Virus record (IMG/VR): IMGVR_UViG_2778261502_000004
Location: 1 to 16,989 of that record
Origin: a virus
Taxonomy: Duplodnaviria > Heunggongvirae > Uroviricota > Caudoviricetes
Direction: 5' to 3' (one strand)
DNA: 16,989 nucleotides
The translations under genes and the position numbers were made by a program. Shown here one piece after another: positions 1 through 16,989 of this stretch. Numbering within the stretch: position 1 is the stretch's first letter; each line of letters begins with the position of its first letter. Below the pieces are notes generated by a model. That model was not told where the DNA came from, searched no databases, and saw only the letters and a program-made list of their open reading frames with translations.

Positions 1-489
1 TCAAATCAAGCATCGCACTCTGAAGCAAGTAGCCATCTGCCTGCTTCCTTTGATCTGCGAGAAGTTTGTGGCAGTGATCACCAATCCCCCCTGTGCGCGA
101 GCAGCTTTCAGTCCAGCTTTTGTTCGTTCAACAATCAGTTCACGCTCCATTTCAGCCAGGGCACCCATCACATGAAAGAAAAAGCGTCCCATTGAGGTAC
201 TGGTATCAATTGAATCCGTCAGACTACGAAAGTTGATGCCTCGTTCGCGCAACTCCTCCACCAGCACGACAAGATGCCGCATACTGCGCCCCAGCCGATC
301 CAGCTTCCAGACAACCAGAGTGTCACCTTCCGATAATGTCCTGAGCAGTTTTTTCAATCCCGGCCTTTCGGACTTTATACCGCTTATCTTGTCTTCAAAA
401 ATCAGCTCGCATCCTGCACAGTTCAGCGCATTACGTTGTAGATCTGTGTTCTGGTCATTTGTTGACACACGTACATAGCCAATAAGCAT
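1..489 (-). CDS. pin: Serine recombinase / DNA invertase (Pin-Gin-Cin-Hin family); catalytic domain intact, C-terminal tail does not look like the usual HTH DNA-binding domain (possible frameshifted pseudogene)
   Basis: ORF 1..525(-); real start likely ATG at 489 (MLIGYVRVSTNDQNTDLQ, catalytic Ser in VRVSTNDQ) with GGGAG 7 nt upstream; last ~28 residues (GLVITATNFSQIKGSRQMATCFRVRCLI) differ from the conserved GRIGGRRPKL...STLYK tail; stop at 1..3. Confidence 0.8.
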   Translation of the reverse strand: MLIGYVRVSTNDQNTDLQRNALNCAGCELIFEDKISGIKSERPGLKKLLRTLSEGDTLVVWKLDRLGRSMRHLVVLVEELRERGINFRSLTDSIDTSTSMGRFFFHVMGALAEMERELIVERTKAGLKAARAQGGLVITATNFSQIKGSRQMATCFRVRCLI

Positions 490-543
490 GGTAGATCTCC
501 CTGACAAAAGCAGGGATGATGCCATTTGCTCGTTATTTCTACA

Positions 544-6196: not shown

Positions 6197-6552
6197 TACT
6201 GGTAATCCCCTTCTTCACCGTGGAACTCAAGATCGACCGTGCCTTCTTCGGCATTATGGTTCGCTTCGCCGTGCAGCCAGGCAGACGACAGTACATAGAC
6301 CTGACCGTTCGCCAGCTCGGCAGTGATGGTCATCTCATCAGACGAGGTGATTTTGCTCACCGGAAAATTCTTCGGCACCTTGAAGGTCCCTTTGACATAG
6401 GGCGCACGGTGAGTTTCCTTGCGGTCCACTGAACCGTCCAGGCCGATGATGTCATCATTGACCGTCCTGTTCATGGGCACCTCAATGCCGCCGGTCAGCG
6501 ATAGCTGCTGACCGTCAATTTTGAAATAACAGGTTCCCCCGATACGGGCCAT
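6196..6552 (-). CDS. Phage tail tube protein (Mu M-like)
   Basis: 118 aa MARIGGTCYFKIDGQQLSLTGG...; TAATG overlap with the sheath stop; sheath-tube-chaperone-tape measure order. Confidence 0.7.
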   Translation of the reverse strand: MARIGGTCYFKIDGQQLSLTGGIEVPMNRTVNDDIIGLDGSVDRKETHRAPYVKGTFKVPKNFPVSKITSSDEMTITAELANGQVYVLSSAWLHGEANHNAEEGTVDLEFHGEEGDYQ

Positions 6553-7457
6553 TATGCAGACTCCTCTGAATACTGAAGACGGAACTGGTTAACCAAGGCA
6601 AAGACACGCAACTGGTTAACATAGTCAGGCGGGAACAGCGTGTTCAGGCGGTTCGGATCGCTGGCATCACGCTCCACAACCAGGTACTGCTTAAACAGTT
6701 CGTAGTTTTCCACGATCCCCGCACGCTCAAGCTGACGGTAGGTTGCCAGCAGTTCCCCTTTGATTACCGCCGGGGTGACAATCGCCTGACCGGGACCAAA
6801 GCGGGTACCGTCGCTGGCAAGCTTGTGACGCCCGTACTTACTGGTAATGACGGATTTCAGTTTGCGCAGTACATACGCACTGGTATGCAGCGTCTCGCTG
6901 TCGAGGTAGCTGTTATCCGCAACCCCGTAAGCATTTTTCCTGTACGTGGTGACATCACGCTGAATGCGCAGCCCCCCGCTTTCGACATACGCCGTTGCCA
7001 CGCCATGAGACAGCAGGGTCTGCTGCTCGGTCATCGTGAACCGTTTCCCCTTCGGCGCAGGCAGCATACCCACCAGCTCACCGGTCTGCGTGGGACGTGC
7101 CGGATCGTTGCGGATAAACACCGCTGCGCGGGCGGTACGGCTTGCCGCCAGCTCGTCGGCAGGCGTCTGGGTCTCTTTTTCGTACCCCGCCAGGGTGATG
7201 TGCTGCTGGTTAAACTGGTCACCTGCGTTCACCAGTTCTGACAGTGTGCCGGTCTTTGCCGTATACACATGACCATACAGCTGACGCGCATAGCTCCAGC
7301 GACCGCTGGTATCGTTCATCTCGGTCACTGTCCCACTTCGAACCGTAGCCGCGCTGATGACGGGATTGTCCTGGTTTGTATTGCTTCCAGCCTTCGCTTT
7401 TGTGGCTTTCGCAGTAGCCTGACGGGTCTGTGGTTGTAGAGCGGCAGCCGCGAACAC
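6552..7457 (-). CDS. Contractile tail sheath protein, 5'-truncated; the upstream part of this ORF is probably out-of-frame read-through from an HNH gene remnant
   Basis: 301-aa ORF with GTG start and no RBS; C-terminal two-thirds sheath-like by synteny and by motifs I recall (RKNAYGVADNSYLD, GQAIVTP, VERDASDPNRLNTLFPPDYVNQ); first ~40 residues are low-complexity Ala/Thr/Lys; sheaths are normally over 370 aa. Confidence 0.6.
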   Translation of the reverse strand: MFAAAALQPQTRQATAKATKAKAGSNTNQDNPVISAATVRSGTVTEMNDTSGRWSYARQLYGHVYTAKTGTLSELVNAGDQFNQQHITLAGYEKETQTPADELAASRTARAAVFIRNDPARPTQTGELVGMLPAPKGKRFTMTEQQTLLSHGVATAYVESGGLRIQRDVTTYRKNAYGVADNSYLDSETLHTSAYVLRKLKSVITSKYGRHKLASDGTRFGPGQAIVTPAVIKGELLATYRQLERAGIVENYELFKQYLVVERDASDPNRLNTLFPPDYVNQLRVFALVNQFRLQYSEESA

Positions 7458-8168: not shown

Positions 8169-8420
8169 TTATTCATTTTGATATCCTATTTTTAGAATAT
8201 CCTTTTTATCTCTATTGCATTGCGCTAATGCAGATAACAAACTCGCATTCAGTTCCAGGCTAGCACCATATGTCAGTGGACTAGGTACAACTGGAATCGG
8301 TGTTTCAGAAGTCAGGCTGGCTGGCAGTGGTACCGCCGGAGTGTTCACGTAAACTGTCCGCGTACTTCCGCAACCGGTCAGCAGCGGCAGCAGGCACAGG
8401 ACGTGAAGCACAATCATCAT
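8169..8420 (-). CDS. Outer-membrane spanin lipoprotein (Rz1-like), overlapping the 3' part of Rz in another frame
   Basis: MMIVLHVLCLLPLLTGCGSTR... with lipobox LLTGC followed by a Pro-rich region; start inside Rz. Confidence 0.65.
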   Translation of the reverse strand: MMIVLHVLCLLPLLTGCGSTRTVYVNTPAVPLPASLTSETPIPVVPSPLTYGASLELNASLLSALAQCNRDKKDILKIGYQNE

Positions 8421-8697
8421 CCGCAACAGCCACTTTGATATCTTCCTGGGTTCTCTGTGACTCCAGTGCAATCTGCTGTTTTGCATGCTGGTTAGCCTCT
8501 ATAACTGTATTGATGATTTGCAGTGATTGCAGAACGTTACGGGTAATGGCAGTTGCTGATTCAGCATTTCGTATAGCCTCATCAACACGCTCCTTTTCGT
8601 GCAGATATTTGCTGTAGTAATGCCCGGCAGACCAGATGAAGGAACCAATGACGGTAACAAAGAAGGCAACAATAACCAGCTTATATCTCAGCTTCAT
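8305..8697 (-). CDS. Inner-membrane spanin (Rz-like)
   Basis: 130 aa with N-terminal transmembrane segment (LVIVAFFVTVIGSFIW) and a coiled-coil-like remainder; start overlaps the endolysin stop. Confidence 0.75.
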   Translation of the reverse strand: MKLRYKLVIVAFFVTVIGSFIWSAGHYYSKYLHEKERVDEAIRNAESATAITRNVLQSLQIINTVIEANQHAKQQIALESQRTQEDIKVAVADDDCASRPVPAAAADRLRKYADSLREHSGGTTASQPDF

Positions 8698-9157
8698 TTA
8701 CTACCCCACCAGCCTCTTTAAACCGGGAAATCAGGTCGCCAATTTTATGTTCATACTGACCGTAACCTGCACCAGGTAACGACGCCCAGATATTGCTGCA
8801 ACGATCGATAGCCTGACGGATATCACCGCGATCAATCATCGGTAAAGCGCCACGCTCTTTAATCTGCTGCAATGCCACAGCGTCCTGGCTTTTCGGAGAG
8901 AAGTCTTTCAGGCCAAGCTGCTTACGATAGGAATCCCACCAACGGGAAAGAAGCTGGTAGCGCCCGGCTGCTGTTGATTTGAGTTTTGGGTTTAGCGTGA
9001 CAAGTTTGCGAGGGTGATCGGAGTAATCAGTAAATAGCTCTCCGCCTACAATGACGTCATAACCATGATTTCTGGTTTTCTGCCGTCCGTTATCCGTTCC
9101 TTCTGACCATGCCACCATATCGAGGAAAGCTTTACGCTGAGGATTAAGATTTTGCAT
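8681..9157 (-). CDS. R: Endolysin, lambda R-type lytic transglycosylase
   Basis: 158 aa MQNLNPQRKAFLDMVAWSEGTDNGRQKTRNHGYDVIVGGELFTDYSDHPRKL..., near-identical to lambda R as I recall it; AGGGGTGA RBS. Confidence 0.93.
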   Translation of the reverse strand: MQNLNPQRKAFLDMVAWSEGTDNGRQKTRNHGYDVIVGGELFTDYSDHPRKLVTLNPKLKSTAAGRYQLLSRWWDSYRKQLGLKDFSPKSQDAVALQQIKERGALPMIDRGDIRQAIDRCSNIWASLPGAGYGQYEHKIGDLISRFKEAGGVVNEAEI

Positions 9158-9311
9158 TTTTCACCCCTGTCAGTCGTTCCCAGAAGTACGTCAGTGCAAC
9201 CGAACCCATTGCACCACTAATCCCCGCTGTCGCGAGAATCATGTAAATACTGAATCCACTTTCGATGCTGATCAGGCCACCAATAACACCGGTGAATCCT
9301 GATATCCGGTC
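9147..9311 (-). pseudogene. Start-less hydrophobic C-terminal remnant, probably of the holin gene
   Basis: Open frame ...SGFTGVIGGLISIESGFSIYMILATAGISGAMGSVALTYFWERLTGVKNAKS* ending in the ATG of R, the position of a holin 3' end; bounded upstream by an in-frame stop, no N-terminal part. Confidence 0.45.
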
Positions 9312-9486
9312 TTAAGTCAGATTTCGTAATTGCACCTGACGTGCATTGCTCAAGTTTTTTAGCCAGCACAAAACTGGCTTTTTTATAGCCATTGAAAACC
9401 AGCCGTAAGTAGCCAGGTGTTGAGCCAACTTTTCCGGCCAACTCGCCCTGCTGTTCTTTGGTTAAAGAGTCCCAATACGCTTTCAT
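9217..9486 (-). CDS. Cro-like HTH regulator (YdaS/Cro family) whose 3' end reads out of frame through the holin remnant
   Basis: Start ATG 9486 with GGAGGT RBS (MKAYWDSLTKEQQGELAGKVGSTPGYLRLVFNGYKKASFVLAKKLEQCTSGAITKSDLRPDI); the last 27 residues (RIHRCYWWPDQHRKW...) are Trp/Arg/His-rich, as expected for the wrong frame of a hydrophobic gene; divergent from cI. Confidence 0.6.
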   Translation of the reverse strand: MKAYWDSLTKEQQGELAGKVGSTPGYLRLVFNGYKKASFVLAKKLEQCTSGAITKSDLRPDIRIHRCYWWPDQHRKWIQYLHDSRDSGD

Positions 9487-9576
9487 ACAATATGTACCTC
9501 CGGTGTACATATTACATGATTAAAATGAACCTTCAAGATACTTGTACCTTAACGGTACAAGGGTTTTAATTTCGTT
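9487..9576. promoter_or_regulatory. Divergent immunity control region with two 19-bp palindromic operators and candidate pR and pRM promoters
   Basis: Operators ATGTACC-N5-TGTACAT (9492..9510) and TTGTACC-N5-GGTACAA (9542..9560); minus-strand promoter TTGAAG (9531..9536) / 16 bp / TAATAT (9509..9514); plus-strand TTTAAT at 9565..9570 lies just before the cI ATG, suggesting a leaderless cI message. Confidence 0.55.
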
Positions 9577-10251
9577 ATGAAAACAATCCATGACATCCGG
9601 CGGTCTAACGCCAGAAAACTGAGAGATGGTGTTGGCGGGAATTCTTCCTTTGCCACTATGATTGATCGCGAGCCAACCCAGACCAGCAGGTTTATGGGAG
9701 ATGGTGCTACTAAAAATATCGGTGACAGCATGGCACGACACATCGAAAAATGTTTCGACCTACCTGTCGGATGGCTCGATCAAGAACACCAGACAACGAA
9801 CATCACAAAAAAACCTGATGTTTCAATCACTAATAAACAAATCACATTAGTCCCTGTCATATCATGGGTACAGGCCGGAGCATGGAAAGAAGTTGGATAT
9901 TCTGAGGTTGATTTGAGCACAGCAGAAACGTATCCCTGCCCTGTACCCTGTGGGGAAATGACTTATATCTTGCGGGTGATAGGTGATTCAATGATTGATG
10001 AGTACCGCCCGGGAGACATGATTTTTGTCGATCCTGAAGTACCTGCCTGCCACGGTGACGACGTTATTGCATTGATGCACGATACAGGTGAAACCACCTT
10101 CAAAAGGTTAATAGAAGATGGGACACAGCGTTATCTCAAAGCGTTAAACCCAAACTGGCCTGAGCCTTACATTAAGATCAACGGTAATTGCTCTATAATT
10201 GGTACAGTGATTTTCTCAGGAAAACCAAGAAGATACAAAATCAAAGCCTAA
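9577..10251 (+). CDS. CI-type prophage repressor: phage-CI HTH N-domain plus LexA/S24-type autocleaving C-domain
   Basis: 224 aa; N-terminal ...GDSMARHIEKCFDLPVGWLDQ; C-terminal domain with Ser in VIGDSM and Lys in TFKRL, the S24 catalytic dyad context. Confidence 0.9.
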   Translation: MKTIHDIRRSNARKLRDGVGGNSSFATMIDREPTQTSRFMGDGATKNIGDSMARHIEKCFDLPVGWLDQEHQTTNITKKPDVSITNKQITLVPVISWVQAGAWKEVGYSEVDLSTAETYPCPVPCGEMTYILRVIGDSMIDEYRPGDMIFVDPEVPACHGDDVIALMHDTGETTFKRLIEDGTQRYLKALNPNWPEPYIKINGNCSIIGTVIFSGKPRRYKIKA

Positions 10252-10263
10252 TCAATGTTTATG

Positions 10264-10288
10264 AACCTGCTTCGGCAGGTTTTTTTAT
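10264..10288 (+). terminator. Rho-independent terminator after cI
   Basis: AACCTGC-TTCG-GCAGGTT stem-loop followed by TTTTTT. Confidence 0.8.
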
Positions 10289-10290
10289 AC

Positions 10291-10323
10291 TTGACAATGT
10301 ACCTTTGAGATACATAATGTACC
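10291..10323 (+). promoter_or_regulatory. pL-like early-left promoter with overlapping operator
   Basis: TTGACA (10291..10296) / 16 bp / CATAAT (10313..10318); operator ATGTACC-N5-GATACAT at 10297..10315 with the same 7-5-7 layout as the cro–cI operators; extra half-site ATGTACC at 10317..10323. Confidence 0.65.
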
Positions 10324-10409
10324 CAAGAGAAACAACGAACAGGCAGGACGCCCACGAAGTAGCCGCCTGGGGCATATGAAGTCCAGGATGATTCGTTAGC
10401 AACAAAAAA

Positions 10410-10440
10410 GCGCCCTACAGGACGCTTAGCTCTTTAACAA
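10410..10440 (+). promoter_or_regulatory. Candidate antitermination site: short hairpin followed by an rrn-type boxA
   Basis: GCTCTTTAACAA (10429..10440) matches the core of the rrn boxA consensus TGCTCTTTAACAA; preceded by hairpin GCGCC-CTACA-GGaCGC (10410..10425); located in the 5' leader downstream of the pL-like promoter. Confidence 0.5.
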
Positions 10441-10485
10441 TCTGGTCCCCATCAACAAGTAACTGATAACTTGAGGAGATGTGAA

Positions 10486-10692
10486 ATGCACAAAACAGAA
10501 CCCAAAATCGTCGCGCCTGGCTACACAGATGAGGAAATTTATGAGTGGATGACAAAGAAGCTGGCAGCTATAAACCAGCTTCGTGAAGTGCTGTCTTATC
10601 GACAGGAAACAATAGACTCCTTAAAAAAACTGGATCAGGAAATCACGGTTTTATCACAGGATGTTACTTTAGATATTGTGCAGACAAATTAG
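10486..10692 (+). CDS. Small hypothetical protein, first gene of the pL-like transcript
   Basis: 68 aa MHKTEPKIVAPGYTDEEIYEWMTKKLAAINQLREVLSYRQETIDSLKKLDQEITVL... ; GAGGAG RBS 7 nt upstream; not Arg-rich, so not an N-type antiterminator. Confidence 0.55.
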   Translation: MHKTEPKIVAPGYTDEEIYEWMTKKLAAINQLREVLSYRQETIDSLKKLDQEITVLSQDVTLDIVQTN

Positions 10693-11098
10693 GATCCCAT
10701 TCATTTTCGTCAAAATCATCAAAGTGATGAATTTGTGATCTCCAGTCTCGATAATCTAAAAATTTCTGGGCGGTTACGCTTATTTTATCAAGTGTGAGTT
10801 CATCCTGAATTGAAAGAAGAAGTTCATCAAATTTCATCTCATTAATCTGTTTTGGCATCCAGTGATGCTTCATCAGAATAAGGTGAACCAGAGCCTTTTT
10901 CCCATTCAACTGATTATAGGGAGTGCCGAATTTCTTCCGGTGCTCATGTAAGACAAGGTCCAAAAGAGTAAGTAATGTTGCCCTTGATTCAACTTTGCTT
11001 ATTTCGACTGATGACACTACCCCACTGATTTCAATGCCCCGATACTTTCCAACATTTTCACAGTGGGATTTGTACAGCGTATAGATATTACCGGACAT
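10664..11098 (-). CDS. Hypothetical protein on the opposite strand, AT-rich, 3' end overlapping the 68-aa gene by 29 bp
   Basis: 144 aa MSGNIYTLYKSHCENVGKYRGIEISGVVSSVEISKVESRATLLTLLDLVLHEHRKKFGTPYNQ...; AAGGA-like RBS; soluble; no family recognised. Confidence 0.55.
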   Translation of the reverse strand: MSGNIYTLYKSHCENVGKYRGIEISGVVSSVEISKVESRATLLTLLDLVLHEHRKKFGTPYNQLNGKKALVHLILMKHHWMPKQINEMKFDELLLSIQDELTLDKISVTAQKFLDYRDWRSQIHHFDDFDENEWDPNLSAQYLK

Positions 11099-11113
11099 TT
11101 CTTTTCCTTTTGC

Positions 11114-11162
11114 GTTGTTGGGGATAACCAGATTAACCGAATCCTTGTTGTTGGGGAATAAC
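11114..11162. repeat. Two direct repeats just upstream of the 144-aa gene start
   Basis: GTTGTTGGGGATAACC (11114..11129) and GTTGTTGGGGAATAAC (11147..11162), 17 bp apart. Confidence 0.5.
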
Positions 11163-11382
11163 TAGGTCCACCTCGCCTGATGTGGCTAAAAGCAGGCACA
11201 TAACAGCTAAGTATTTTCAACCAGAGAGAATCCTTAGCGTTGTGGTGAATGCGGCTCAGCGCACGCGGGTTAAGGTTGAGGCTGACAGTCGACCTTCTGT
11301 GGATACCCACCCGCCTGGTGTGCAACCTTCGCCAGGCACCGGGAGGCACCCGGCACCACAACTTTATGCTGTGTGTAGTCTT

Positions 11383-15735: not shown

Positions 15736-16989
15736 TTACGCACGAATGGTGTAATCACCAATGCCGATCCACTTGTAAGTGGTCAGTGCTTCCAGCCCCA
15801 TTGGGCCACGCGCGTGGAGTTTTTGTGTGCTTACCGCCACTTCCGCACCCAGACCAAACTGGCCGCCGTCGGTAAAACGCGTAGAGGCGTTAACGTAAAC
15901 AGCGGACGAATCCACTTCGTTAACAAAACGCTGGGCGTTGCGCATATCGCGGGTCAGGATCGCATCGGAGTGTTGTGTGCCGTGTTCACGAATATGGGCG
16001 ATGGCATCGTCAAGATCGCTGACGATTTTGACGTTCAAATCTAATGACAGAAACTCATCGTCATACTCTTCGGCTTTAACAGCAACCACCTTCGCAGGGC
16101 CTGCCTGCAACTGCGCCAGTGCAGCTGCATCTGCGTGTAATGTCACGCCGCTTTCCGCCATTTGTTTGCTTAATGCGGGCAGGAAGCTATCGGCGATGTT
16201 TTTATTCACCAGCAACGTTTCAACCGTATTACATGTGCTCGGACGCTGAGTTTTCGCGTTGACGATCACTTTTAATGCTTCAGCGATCTCTACACTTTCA
16301 TCAACGTAAATATGGCATACGCCTATACCACCTGTGATCACCGGGATTGTCGACTGTTCACGGCACAGTTTATGCAAACCAGCGCCACCACGCGGGATCA
16401 GCATGTCGATGTATTTATCCATACGCAGCATTTCACTGACCAGCGCACGGTCAGGATTATCAATCGCCTGCACGGCACCCGCCGGTAAGCCGCAGGATTT
16501 CAGGGCGTCCTGAATCACCGCCACCGTTGCAGCGTTAGTGCGACACGTTTCTTTGCCACCGCGCAGGATCACCGCATTACCGGTTTTCAGGCACAGCGAA
16601 GCGACATCAACCGTCACGTTCGGGCGCGCTTCATAAATCACGCCAATAACCCCCAGCGGTACGCGACGACGCTCAAGACGCAGGCCGCTGTCCAGTACGC
16701 CGCCATCGATTACCTGCCCCACCGGATCGGCGAGGTTGCACACCTGACGTACATCGTCGGCAATGCCTTTCAGCCGTGCGGGCGTCAGTGCCAGACGGTC
16801 AAGCATCGCTTCGCTAAGGCCATTGGCTCGCGCGTCAGCAACATCCTGGGCGTTAGCGTTGAGGATGATTTCGCTTTGTGCTTCCAGTTCATCGGCGATT
16901 TTTTCCAGCACGCGATTTTTTTCGCGGCTGGAGAGTTGCGCTAATTTATACGAGGCTTGCTTCGCGGCAATGCCCATTTGTTCCAGCAT
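15736..16989 (-). CDS. proA: Gamma-glutamyl phosphate reductase (proline biosynthesis)
   Basis: Complete 417-aa ORF starting exactly at the window end ([27 protein letters not shown]...); recognised as E. coli ProA; adjacent to thrW as in E. coli. Confidence 0.97.

Follow-up and report, generated by a model that had tools for sequence, protein, structure and literature searches.

The window analyzed here, a 16,989-nucleotide stretch of viral DNA (IMG/VR record IMGVR_UViG_2778261502_000004), very probably carries the immunity region of a temperate phage of the SfV/SfIV/e14 type, which has survived in a heavily deleted prophage as a repression circuit made up of CI and its operators. The module is an ordinary one and largely already described, with its operator region, its repressor and its leaderless transcript all to be found in databases or the literature. 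Our comparison appears to add to this incrementally, with a six-base operator half-site, a set of five sites and a geometry that seems to be fixed across the gamma-proteobacteria. The features of the region are listed in Table 1.

Table 1. Features of the immunity region, with positions in the window
Feature	Position	Strand	Description
cro' (ymfT-like)	9217..9486	-	62 native codons followed by 27 foreign codons
Deletion junction	9300..9301	.	cro codon 62 joined out of frame to the middle of the holin gene
Putative operator OR1	9492..9510	.	ATGTACC TCCGG TGTACAT; PWM 21.4 bits, rank 3
Predicted PR for cro	9509..9536	-	-35 TTGAAG 9536..9531, 16-nt spacer, -10 TAATAT 9514..9509, start near 9502
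Candidate weak middle operator	9525..9543	.	ATGAACC TTCAA GATACTT; 11.7 bits, rank 5
Putative operator at cI promoter	9542..9560	.	Perfect palindrome TTGTACC TTAAC GGTACAA; 22.5 bits
PRM	9542..9577	+	-35 TTGTAC 9542-9547, 17-nt spacer, -10 TTTAAT 9565-9570, predicted start at A of ATG (9577)
cI (ymfK/cohE type)	9577..10251	+	224 aa; helix-turn-helix N-terminal domain and S24 autopeptidase domain
Intrinsic terminator after cI	10263..10288	+	Annotated as terminator in the SfV and Ayreon records
pL-like promoter	10291..10318	+	TTGACA 10291-10296, 16-nt spacer, CATAAT 10313-10318; 11/12
Putative operator OL1	10297..10315	.	ATGTACC TTTGA GATACAT, in pL spacer; 24.6 bits, rank 1
Candidate operator OL2	10317..10335	.	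ATGTACC CAAGA GAAACAA, over pL start site; 16.9 bits, rank 4

Relationship to known immunity regions

Between position 9301 and ~10400 the window shares ~99% identity with the ymfT-ymfK (croE-cohE) immunity region of e14, a cryptic prophage of K-12, and likewise with many prophages of E. coli; among 5,426 complete E. coli genomes, 2,831 have matches to parts of the region. The module is also present in the Shigella phages SfIV and SfV, in phages cdtI, 2H10 and Ayreon, and in a dozen Stx2c-converting phages. Identity to SfV, SfIV and e14 runs at 98–99% at the DNA level across cro, the spacer, cI, the terminator and pL, and the operator half-sites of SfV, e14 and an Stx2c phage are the same as those of the window; judged by these half-sites and by its CI, which is 100% identical to that of SfIV, the module belongs to the SfV/SfIV/e14 immunity type. 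The SfV GenBank record (2002) annotates the same 90-bp spacer as a 'putative operator region'. The window's prophage differs from e14 in its location, since e14 sits at icd and the prophage studied here adjoins tRNA-Thr(CGT) and proA, and it differs from SfV, SfIV and e14 alike in having lost the last four residues of Cro. The 2004 analysis of e14 by Mehta et al. is said to have located the sites bound by the repressor and by Cro through a comparison with SfV.

Resemblance to phage λ is evident in the divergent cI and cro genes, the back-to-back promoters and the repeated 17-bp operators of two-fold symmetry at OR and pL, and further in the S24 repressor with its predicted self-cleavage, the probably leaderless cI mRNA and the terminator followed by pL downstream of cI. 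With repeated symmetric operators predicted over PR, PRM and pL, the region thus appears to have the organization of a lambdoid immunity region. Its operator sequence is unrelated to that of λ, and the arrangement differs too: the λ OR has three sites 23–24 bp apart, whereas the OR of the window has two strong sites 50 bp apart and one weak, conserved site that overlaps the -35 of PR, with spacings of 33 and 17 bp. Unlike in λ, the palindrome at 9542-9560 lies over the core of PRM (centre at -26), where its left arm doubles as the -35 hexamer, and the cro ribosome-binding site falls inside OR1.

Palindromic sites in the spacer and at pL

The spacer between cro' and cI is 90 bp long (9487-9576), bounded by the cro' ATG at 9486 on the minus strand and the cI ATG at 9577. 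The sequence-only reading of this stretch had placed palindromes of a 7-5-7 form at three points, two of them in this spacer and the third at a pL-like promoter. The positions hold. A pattern scan of the whole window found exact TGTAC-N7-GTACA at 9493-9509 and 9543-9559, both in the spacer, and a copy with one mismatch at 10298-10314, between the -35 and -10 of the pL-like promoter. The exact 7-5-7 form is another matter, as it is found only at 9542-9560; the other two sites each depart from it by one base, with right arms TGTACAT at 9492-9510 and GATACAT at 10297-10315. Run over the full sequence, as that reading had proposed, and with up to one mismatch allowed, the scan returned four matches where 0.24 ± 0.54 were expected, and four or more were obtained in none of 200 shuffles. 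Three of the four are in the switch; the fourth, at 16737 within proA, is the chance one. Chance is excluded as the source of the switch palindromes.

We also scored 16,971 window positions with a PWM trained only on sites of non-E. coli relatives, and the five highest scores are the five switch sites. The three strong sites of the earlier proposal are among them, and two weaker ones that it had overlooked, at 9525-9543 and 10317-10335, are indicated by the PWM and by their recurrence in relatives, so that the operators probably number five and not three. OR1 overlaps the -10 and predicted start of PR, and the cro Shine-Dalgarno sequence, GGAGG, is within its spacer in a predicted leader of 16 nt. 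The candidate middle site covers the -35 of PR and has its centre at -43 relative to the start of cI transcription. OL1 and OL2 are 20 bp apart.

A half-operator-like sequence, CTGTACC CTGTG GGGAAAT, is present inside the cI coding region at 9941-9959 and is kept in e14 and SfV; it scores 8.6 bits, a score at which about one chance match is expected. LexA boxes were considered and rejected, as CTGT-N8-ACAG has 7 matches against 5.2 expected, which is chance level, and none of them is in the switch.

The CI repressor and its probably leaderless mRNA

The gene at 9577-10251, named cI in the sequence-only reading, encodes a CI/LexA-type repressor, an identification borne out by Pfam, by the catalytic residues and by an AlphaFold2 model. 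Residues 93-212 match Peptidase_S24 (PF00717, 1.5e-26), and the sequence matches in the PDB are the λ CI C-terminal domain, UmuD and LexA. The cleavage and catalytic motifs read VQA100-G101, GDS138M and FK176RL, that is, an Ala-Gly site and a Ser/Lys dyad, and S138 and K176 are nearly invariant among 39 homologues. The Pfam search of CI gave no helix-turn-helix match. In the AlphaFold2 model (pLDDT 80.7 overall, 85-93 over residues 1-70), helices at 4-19, 22-28, 33-40 and 50-59 make up a four-helix N-terminal domain, and the best PDB structural match of the whole model is λ repressor, including the full-length structure 3BDN. Among proteins of solved structure, the one closest in sequence to the N-terminal domain is Rep of Salmonella phage SPC32H (PDB 5D50, E = 6e-4, residues 1-74). 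As this match is limited to the N-terminal domain, Rep and CI differ in their C-terminal parts. The paper on the Rep structure reportedly describes inactivation by an antirepressor and not by self-cleavage.

The cI ATG had been noted to follow its -10 element by about 7 bp without a ribosome-binding site, and indeed six bases separate TTTAAT (9565-9570) from the ATG at 9577, with no Shine-Dalgarno sequence between them. The suggestion that cI is probably leaderless agrees with the published start site of the near-identical e14 gene ymfK: the dRNA-seq study of Romero et al. (2014) gives it a class I start site with a leader length of 0 (PMC4681348, Table S3) and includes it among five leaderless E. 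coli mRNAs. The window is the same as e14 base for base from 9523 through the cI ATG, the single spacer difference being at 9522. Because the e14 start maps to the A of the ATG, the leaderless call had already been shown experimentally on a near-identical sequence, and a leaderless cI mRNA in the window's own strain would match that K-12 mapping, from which it is transferred. The 17-nt distance from operator to ATG, the position of the -10 and the lack of a Shine-Dalgarno sequence are kept as far as Pseudomonas and Vibrio phages, and the most conserved part of the cro-cI spacer is the TAAT core of the cI -10. The same K-12 lysogen data set lists no start site for PR or pL (PMC4681348), an absence of signal only, which fits with repression of both.

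Repressors are kept in two other defective K-12 prophages, RacR in Rac and DicA in Qin, and their mRNAs are leaderless or near-leaderless in the same dRNA-seq study (PMC4681348). Their partners, too, are Cro-like proteins, of the YdaS family. To our knowledge, neither RacR nor DicA has an S24 self-cleavage domain, and the window's CI has one.

Conservation of the putative operators and the protein likely to bind them

The divergent relatives used for comparison were four phages, those of Hafnia, Edwardsiella, Pseudomonas and Vibrio, together with 36 genomes from other species that range from Atlantibacter to Halomonas and Vibrio. In almost every relative whose CI is of the S24 type, TGTACC-N5-GGTACA is present with its first T at -84/-85, at -34 to -38 and at ~+721 from the cI ATG, the last of these just past the cI terminator; the OR1 position at -84/-85 is kept in ~35 of them. 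Positions 6 and 12 of the motif, on which the choice of sites did not depend, have an information content of 1.2 bits each, and the half-site is therefore TGTACC; the N5 is unconstrained. A conservation profile anchored at the ATG has its maxima at the half-sites and the cI -10 and is low in the spacers. Matches to the middle site, of 7-15 bits, are found at -50 to -53 in most relatives, and an OL2-like site is found at +740 to +742 in many. The conservation of the middle site could come instead from the overlapping -35 of PR.

A protein-seeded IMG/VR search returned identical copies only, and these supplied the near-identical copies used for polymorphism analysis. Variation among ~80 such copies is confined to the spacers and a single position where G and A are both tolerated, and the half-site cores are unchanged. 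A motif-first scan of IMG/VR for TTGTACC-N5-GGTACAA gave 119 contigs, in 84 of which an ORF with the CI N-terminal signature begins exactly 16 nt past the 19-mer.

That the inverted repeats function at the RNA level, as hairpins or terminators, as might be thought of 9541-9561 with the T-run that follows it, which one scan listed as terminator-like, seems to us scarcely credible. Their arms are conserved in sequence and not just in complementarity, and the same arms recur at three loci per genome; the loop bases vary, compensatory changes in the arms are absent, and Rfam has no match at E <= 1 across 9000-11300. In addition, 9541-9561 is upstream of the mapped cI start and so outside the cI transcript.

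A second question is whether the palindromes might be mainly sites for Cro (YmfT), or for a host factor, and not operators of CI. Cro homologues accompany the motif in every relative examined and, because the two genes always occur together, the comparison by itself is unable to assign the sites to one protein or the other. CI and Cro share operators in lambdoid phages, so that use of the sites by Cro would not be exclusive of CI. OL, 755 bp away from OR, bears the same motif, as a prophage repressor predicts, and wherever the motif is present, from Enterobacterales to Pseudomonas, the CI N-terminal domain is conserved with its TQxSR helix; as to host factors, the switch sites differ from LexA boxes in the spacing of TGT and ACA. 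We accordingly regard sites meant chiefly for Cro or a host protein as quite improbable, and the comparative evidence for CI and these operators as a cognate pair is strong. Since a search of the available literature found no EMSA, footprint or ChIP for YmfK or SfV CI, and likewise for CohE and the SfIV operators, we infer the binding by CI itself; a search for PhiR29/PhiR49 gave nothing relevant.

A homologue search with the CI N-terminal domain alone gave fragments. Proteins of 127-131 aa from Hydrogenovibrio and Thiomicrospira (L123, L125, L126 and L128) are 51-55% identical to this domain and are without S24. Their genes have no TGTACC-N5-GGTACA at the conserved upstream positions, and in two cases one match lies shortly after the gene. 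On this evidence they delimit the operator-repressor family, and they may represent a related repressor family with other operators.

Cro, PR and the deletion junction

The switch as a whole had been described as intact. This is true of CI and its sites; Cro is damaged by the deletion at 9300/9301. In alignments with K-12 e14 and an intact relative, homology of cro' stops at 9301. Native Cro has 66 residues, of which 62 are kept here, and because the junction is out of frame the last four are replaced by 27 foreign ones, with loss of the conserved aromatic residue (Tyr or Phe) that follows LRPDI. Profile searches still match cro' to Pfam YdaS_toxin (2e-4) and to PHROG 35, 'transcriptional repressor'. 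As sequenced, the truncated and fused Cro' does not appear to provide a functional partner for CI. On the other side of the junction, the holin gene of the intact relative corresponds to window positions 9144-9449, and only 9144-9300 remains. Lost with the start of the holin gene are the early genes found downstream of cro in the intact relative, from ymfL through the replication genes and genes of the late region; absent too is ymfM, the SOS-inducible division inhibitor of e14. For ymfM/sfiC, the literature discusses the e14 repressor as the likely SOS-sensitive regulator.

The predicted PR is a weak match to consensus (8/12) and falls under the threshold of the promoter scan. Both of its hexamer positions are conserved among relatives, and in Edwardsiella phage EPP-1 the -10 position reads CATAAT.

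The pL-like promoter and its operon

The pL-like promoter is annotated as a promoter in phage Ayreon, and the genes under it are small ORFs, yfdQ/R/T-like genes, xis and int. Its leader runs for 161 nt (10325-10485) before the first ORF (10486-10692), and the first ~75 nt are conserved in e14 and SfV. A put/nut-like RNA element in this leader was considered and dropped, as the leader folds no better than shuffled sequences (z = -0.10) and has no Rfam match. SfV-type phages are reported to be without N, cII and cIII, and the SfIV paper describes the cI/cro pair (PMC3851460).

Decay of the prophage and persistence of the module

The left part of the window has genes for a Pin-like invertase, tail fibre, baseplate, tape measure and tail tube, a C-terminal sheath fragment, spanins and a λ R-like endolysin. 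As had been concluded from the sequence, the prophage is unable to replicate or assemble, for replication, terminase, portal and head genes are all absent. The tail sheath gene (6552-7457) retains a C-terminal fragment only (profile positions 242-493 of 493), joined to an unrelated N-terminus of 44 residues, and this fusion points to a second internal deletion that would have removed the head and packaging genes. At the left end of the window a Pin-like serine invertase gene (1-525, minus strand) adjoins oppositely oriented fragments of tail-fibre and tail-fibre-assembly genes; by analogy with e14 pinE/stfE, positions 1-2416 look like an invertible host-range segment. Directly downstream of PR and cro', at 8169-9157, are a λ R-like endolysin gene whose product has no signal-anchor sequence and genes for Rz/Rz1-type spanins, with no holin gene. 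SOS induction would be expected to express the genes at 8169-9157, and lysis is unlikely to follow.

The survival of CI and its operators in such a remnant had been attributed to retention for immunity or for control of the remaining cargo. The alternative is that the deletions are simply recent, and that the module is intact for that reason and not through selection. CI matches that of SfIV (KC814930) with 100% identity, and DNA identity across the region is 99%, so recent decay would explain the intactness equally well; moreover, the 9300/9301 junction is spanned in none of the 5,426 complete E. coli genomes, an indication that it is young and particular to the strain. Against this, the module also survives in e14 of K-12, an old prophage that decayed independently, and the matches to parts of the region in the 2,831 genomes noted above fit long persistence, which is no proof of selection. 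We put recent decay at slightly less than an even chance, and retention of the switch for immunity or cargo control is plausible.

Proposed circuit

In the circuit that we favour, a CI dimer would bind 17-19-bp operators of the form TGTACC-N5-GGTACA. At OR1 it would mask three elements of PR, its -10, start site and ribosome-binding site, and so shut this promoter off. At OL1, between the -35 and -10 of pL, together with the weaker OL2 at the start site, CI would shut off the operon that extends through xis and int. Occupancy of 9542-9560, at the -35 of PRM, by CI or Cro would limit transcription of cI, in the case of CI as autoregulation. Cooperativity or activation may come in addition from the weak middle site, whose position, -43, is the one from which λ CI activates PRM. 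The cI mRNA is predicted to begin at the A of the AUG and to be translated without a leader. After DNA damage, RecA-stimulated self-cleavage of CI at Ala100-Gly101 would relieve the repression of PR and pL. All that PR could yield in this remnant is a damaged Cro, the endolysin without its holin, the spanins and tail fragments, and the circuit would for this reason be a repressor-operator relic, no longer able to serve as a lysis-lysogeny switch. Immunity should still extend to phages that share its operators, among them SfV, e14-type and Stx2c phages.

It may also be asked whether the SfV/e14-type switch works by a logic distinct from that of λ. The palindrome at 9542-9560, on this view the strongest operator, forms the -35 of cI, which would make autorepression obligatory; a weak site is present at -43, and OR1 encloses the cro ribosome-binding site. 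The geometry of OR (33 + 17 bp) and of OL (20 bp) appears constant across Enterobacterales, Pseudomonas, Vibrio and Halomonas. We consider the distinct logic tentative and rather doubtful. Were it indeed distinct, this widespread module, found also in Stx2c- and Cdt-converting phages, would offer a model switch of its own kind that is amenable to study.

Implications for toxin-converting phages

The comparative definition of the operator as TGTACC-N5-GGTACA, together with the five predicted sites, provides targets for work on a repressor that Stx2c- and Cdt-converting phages also use. A host in which such a remnant retains CI is predicted to be immune to these phages, and this would bear on the acquisition of toxin genes by strains that carry it.
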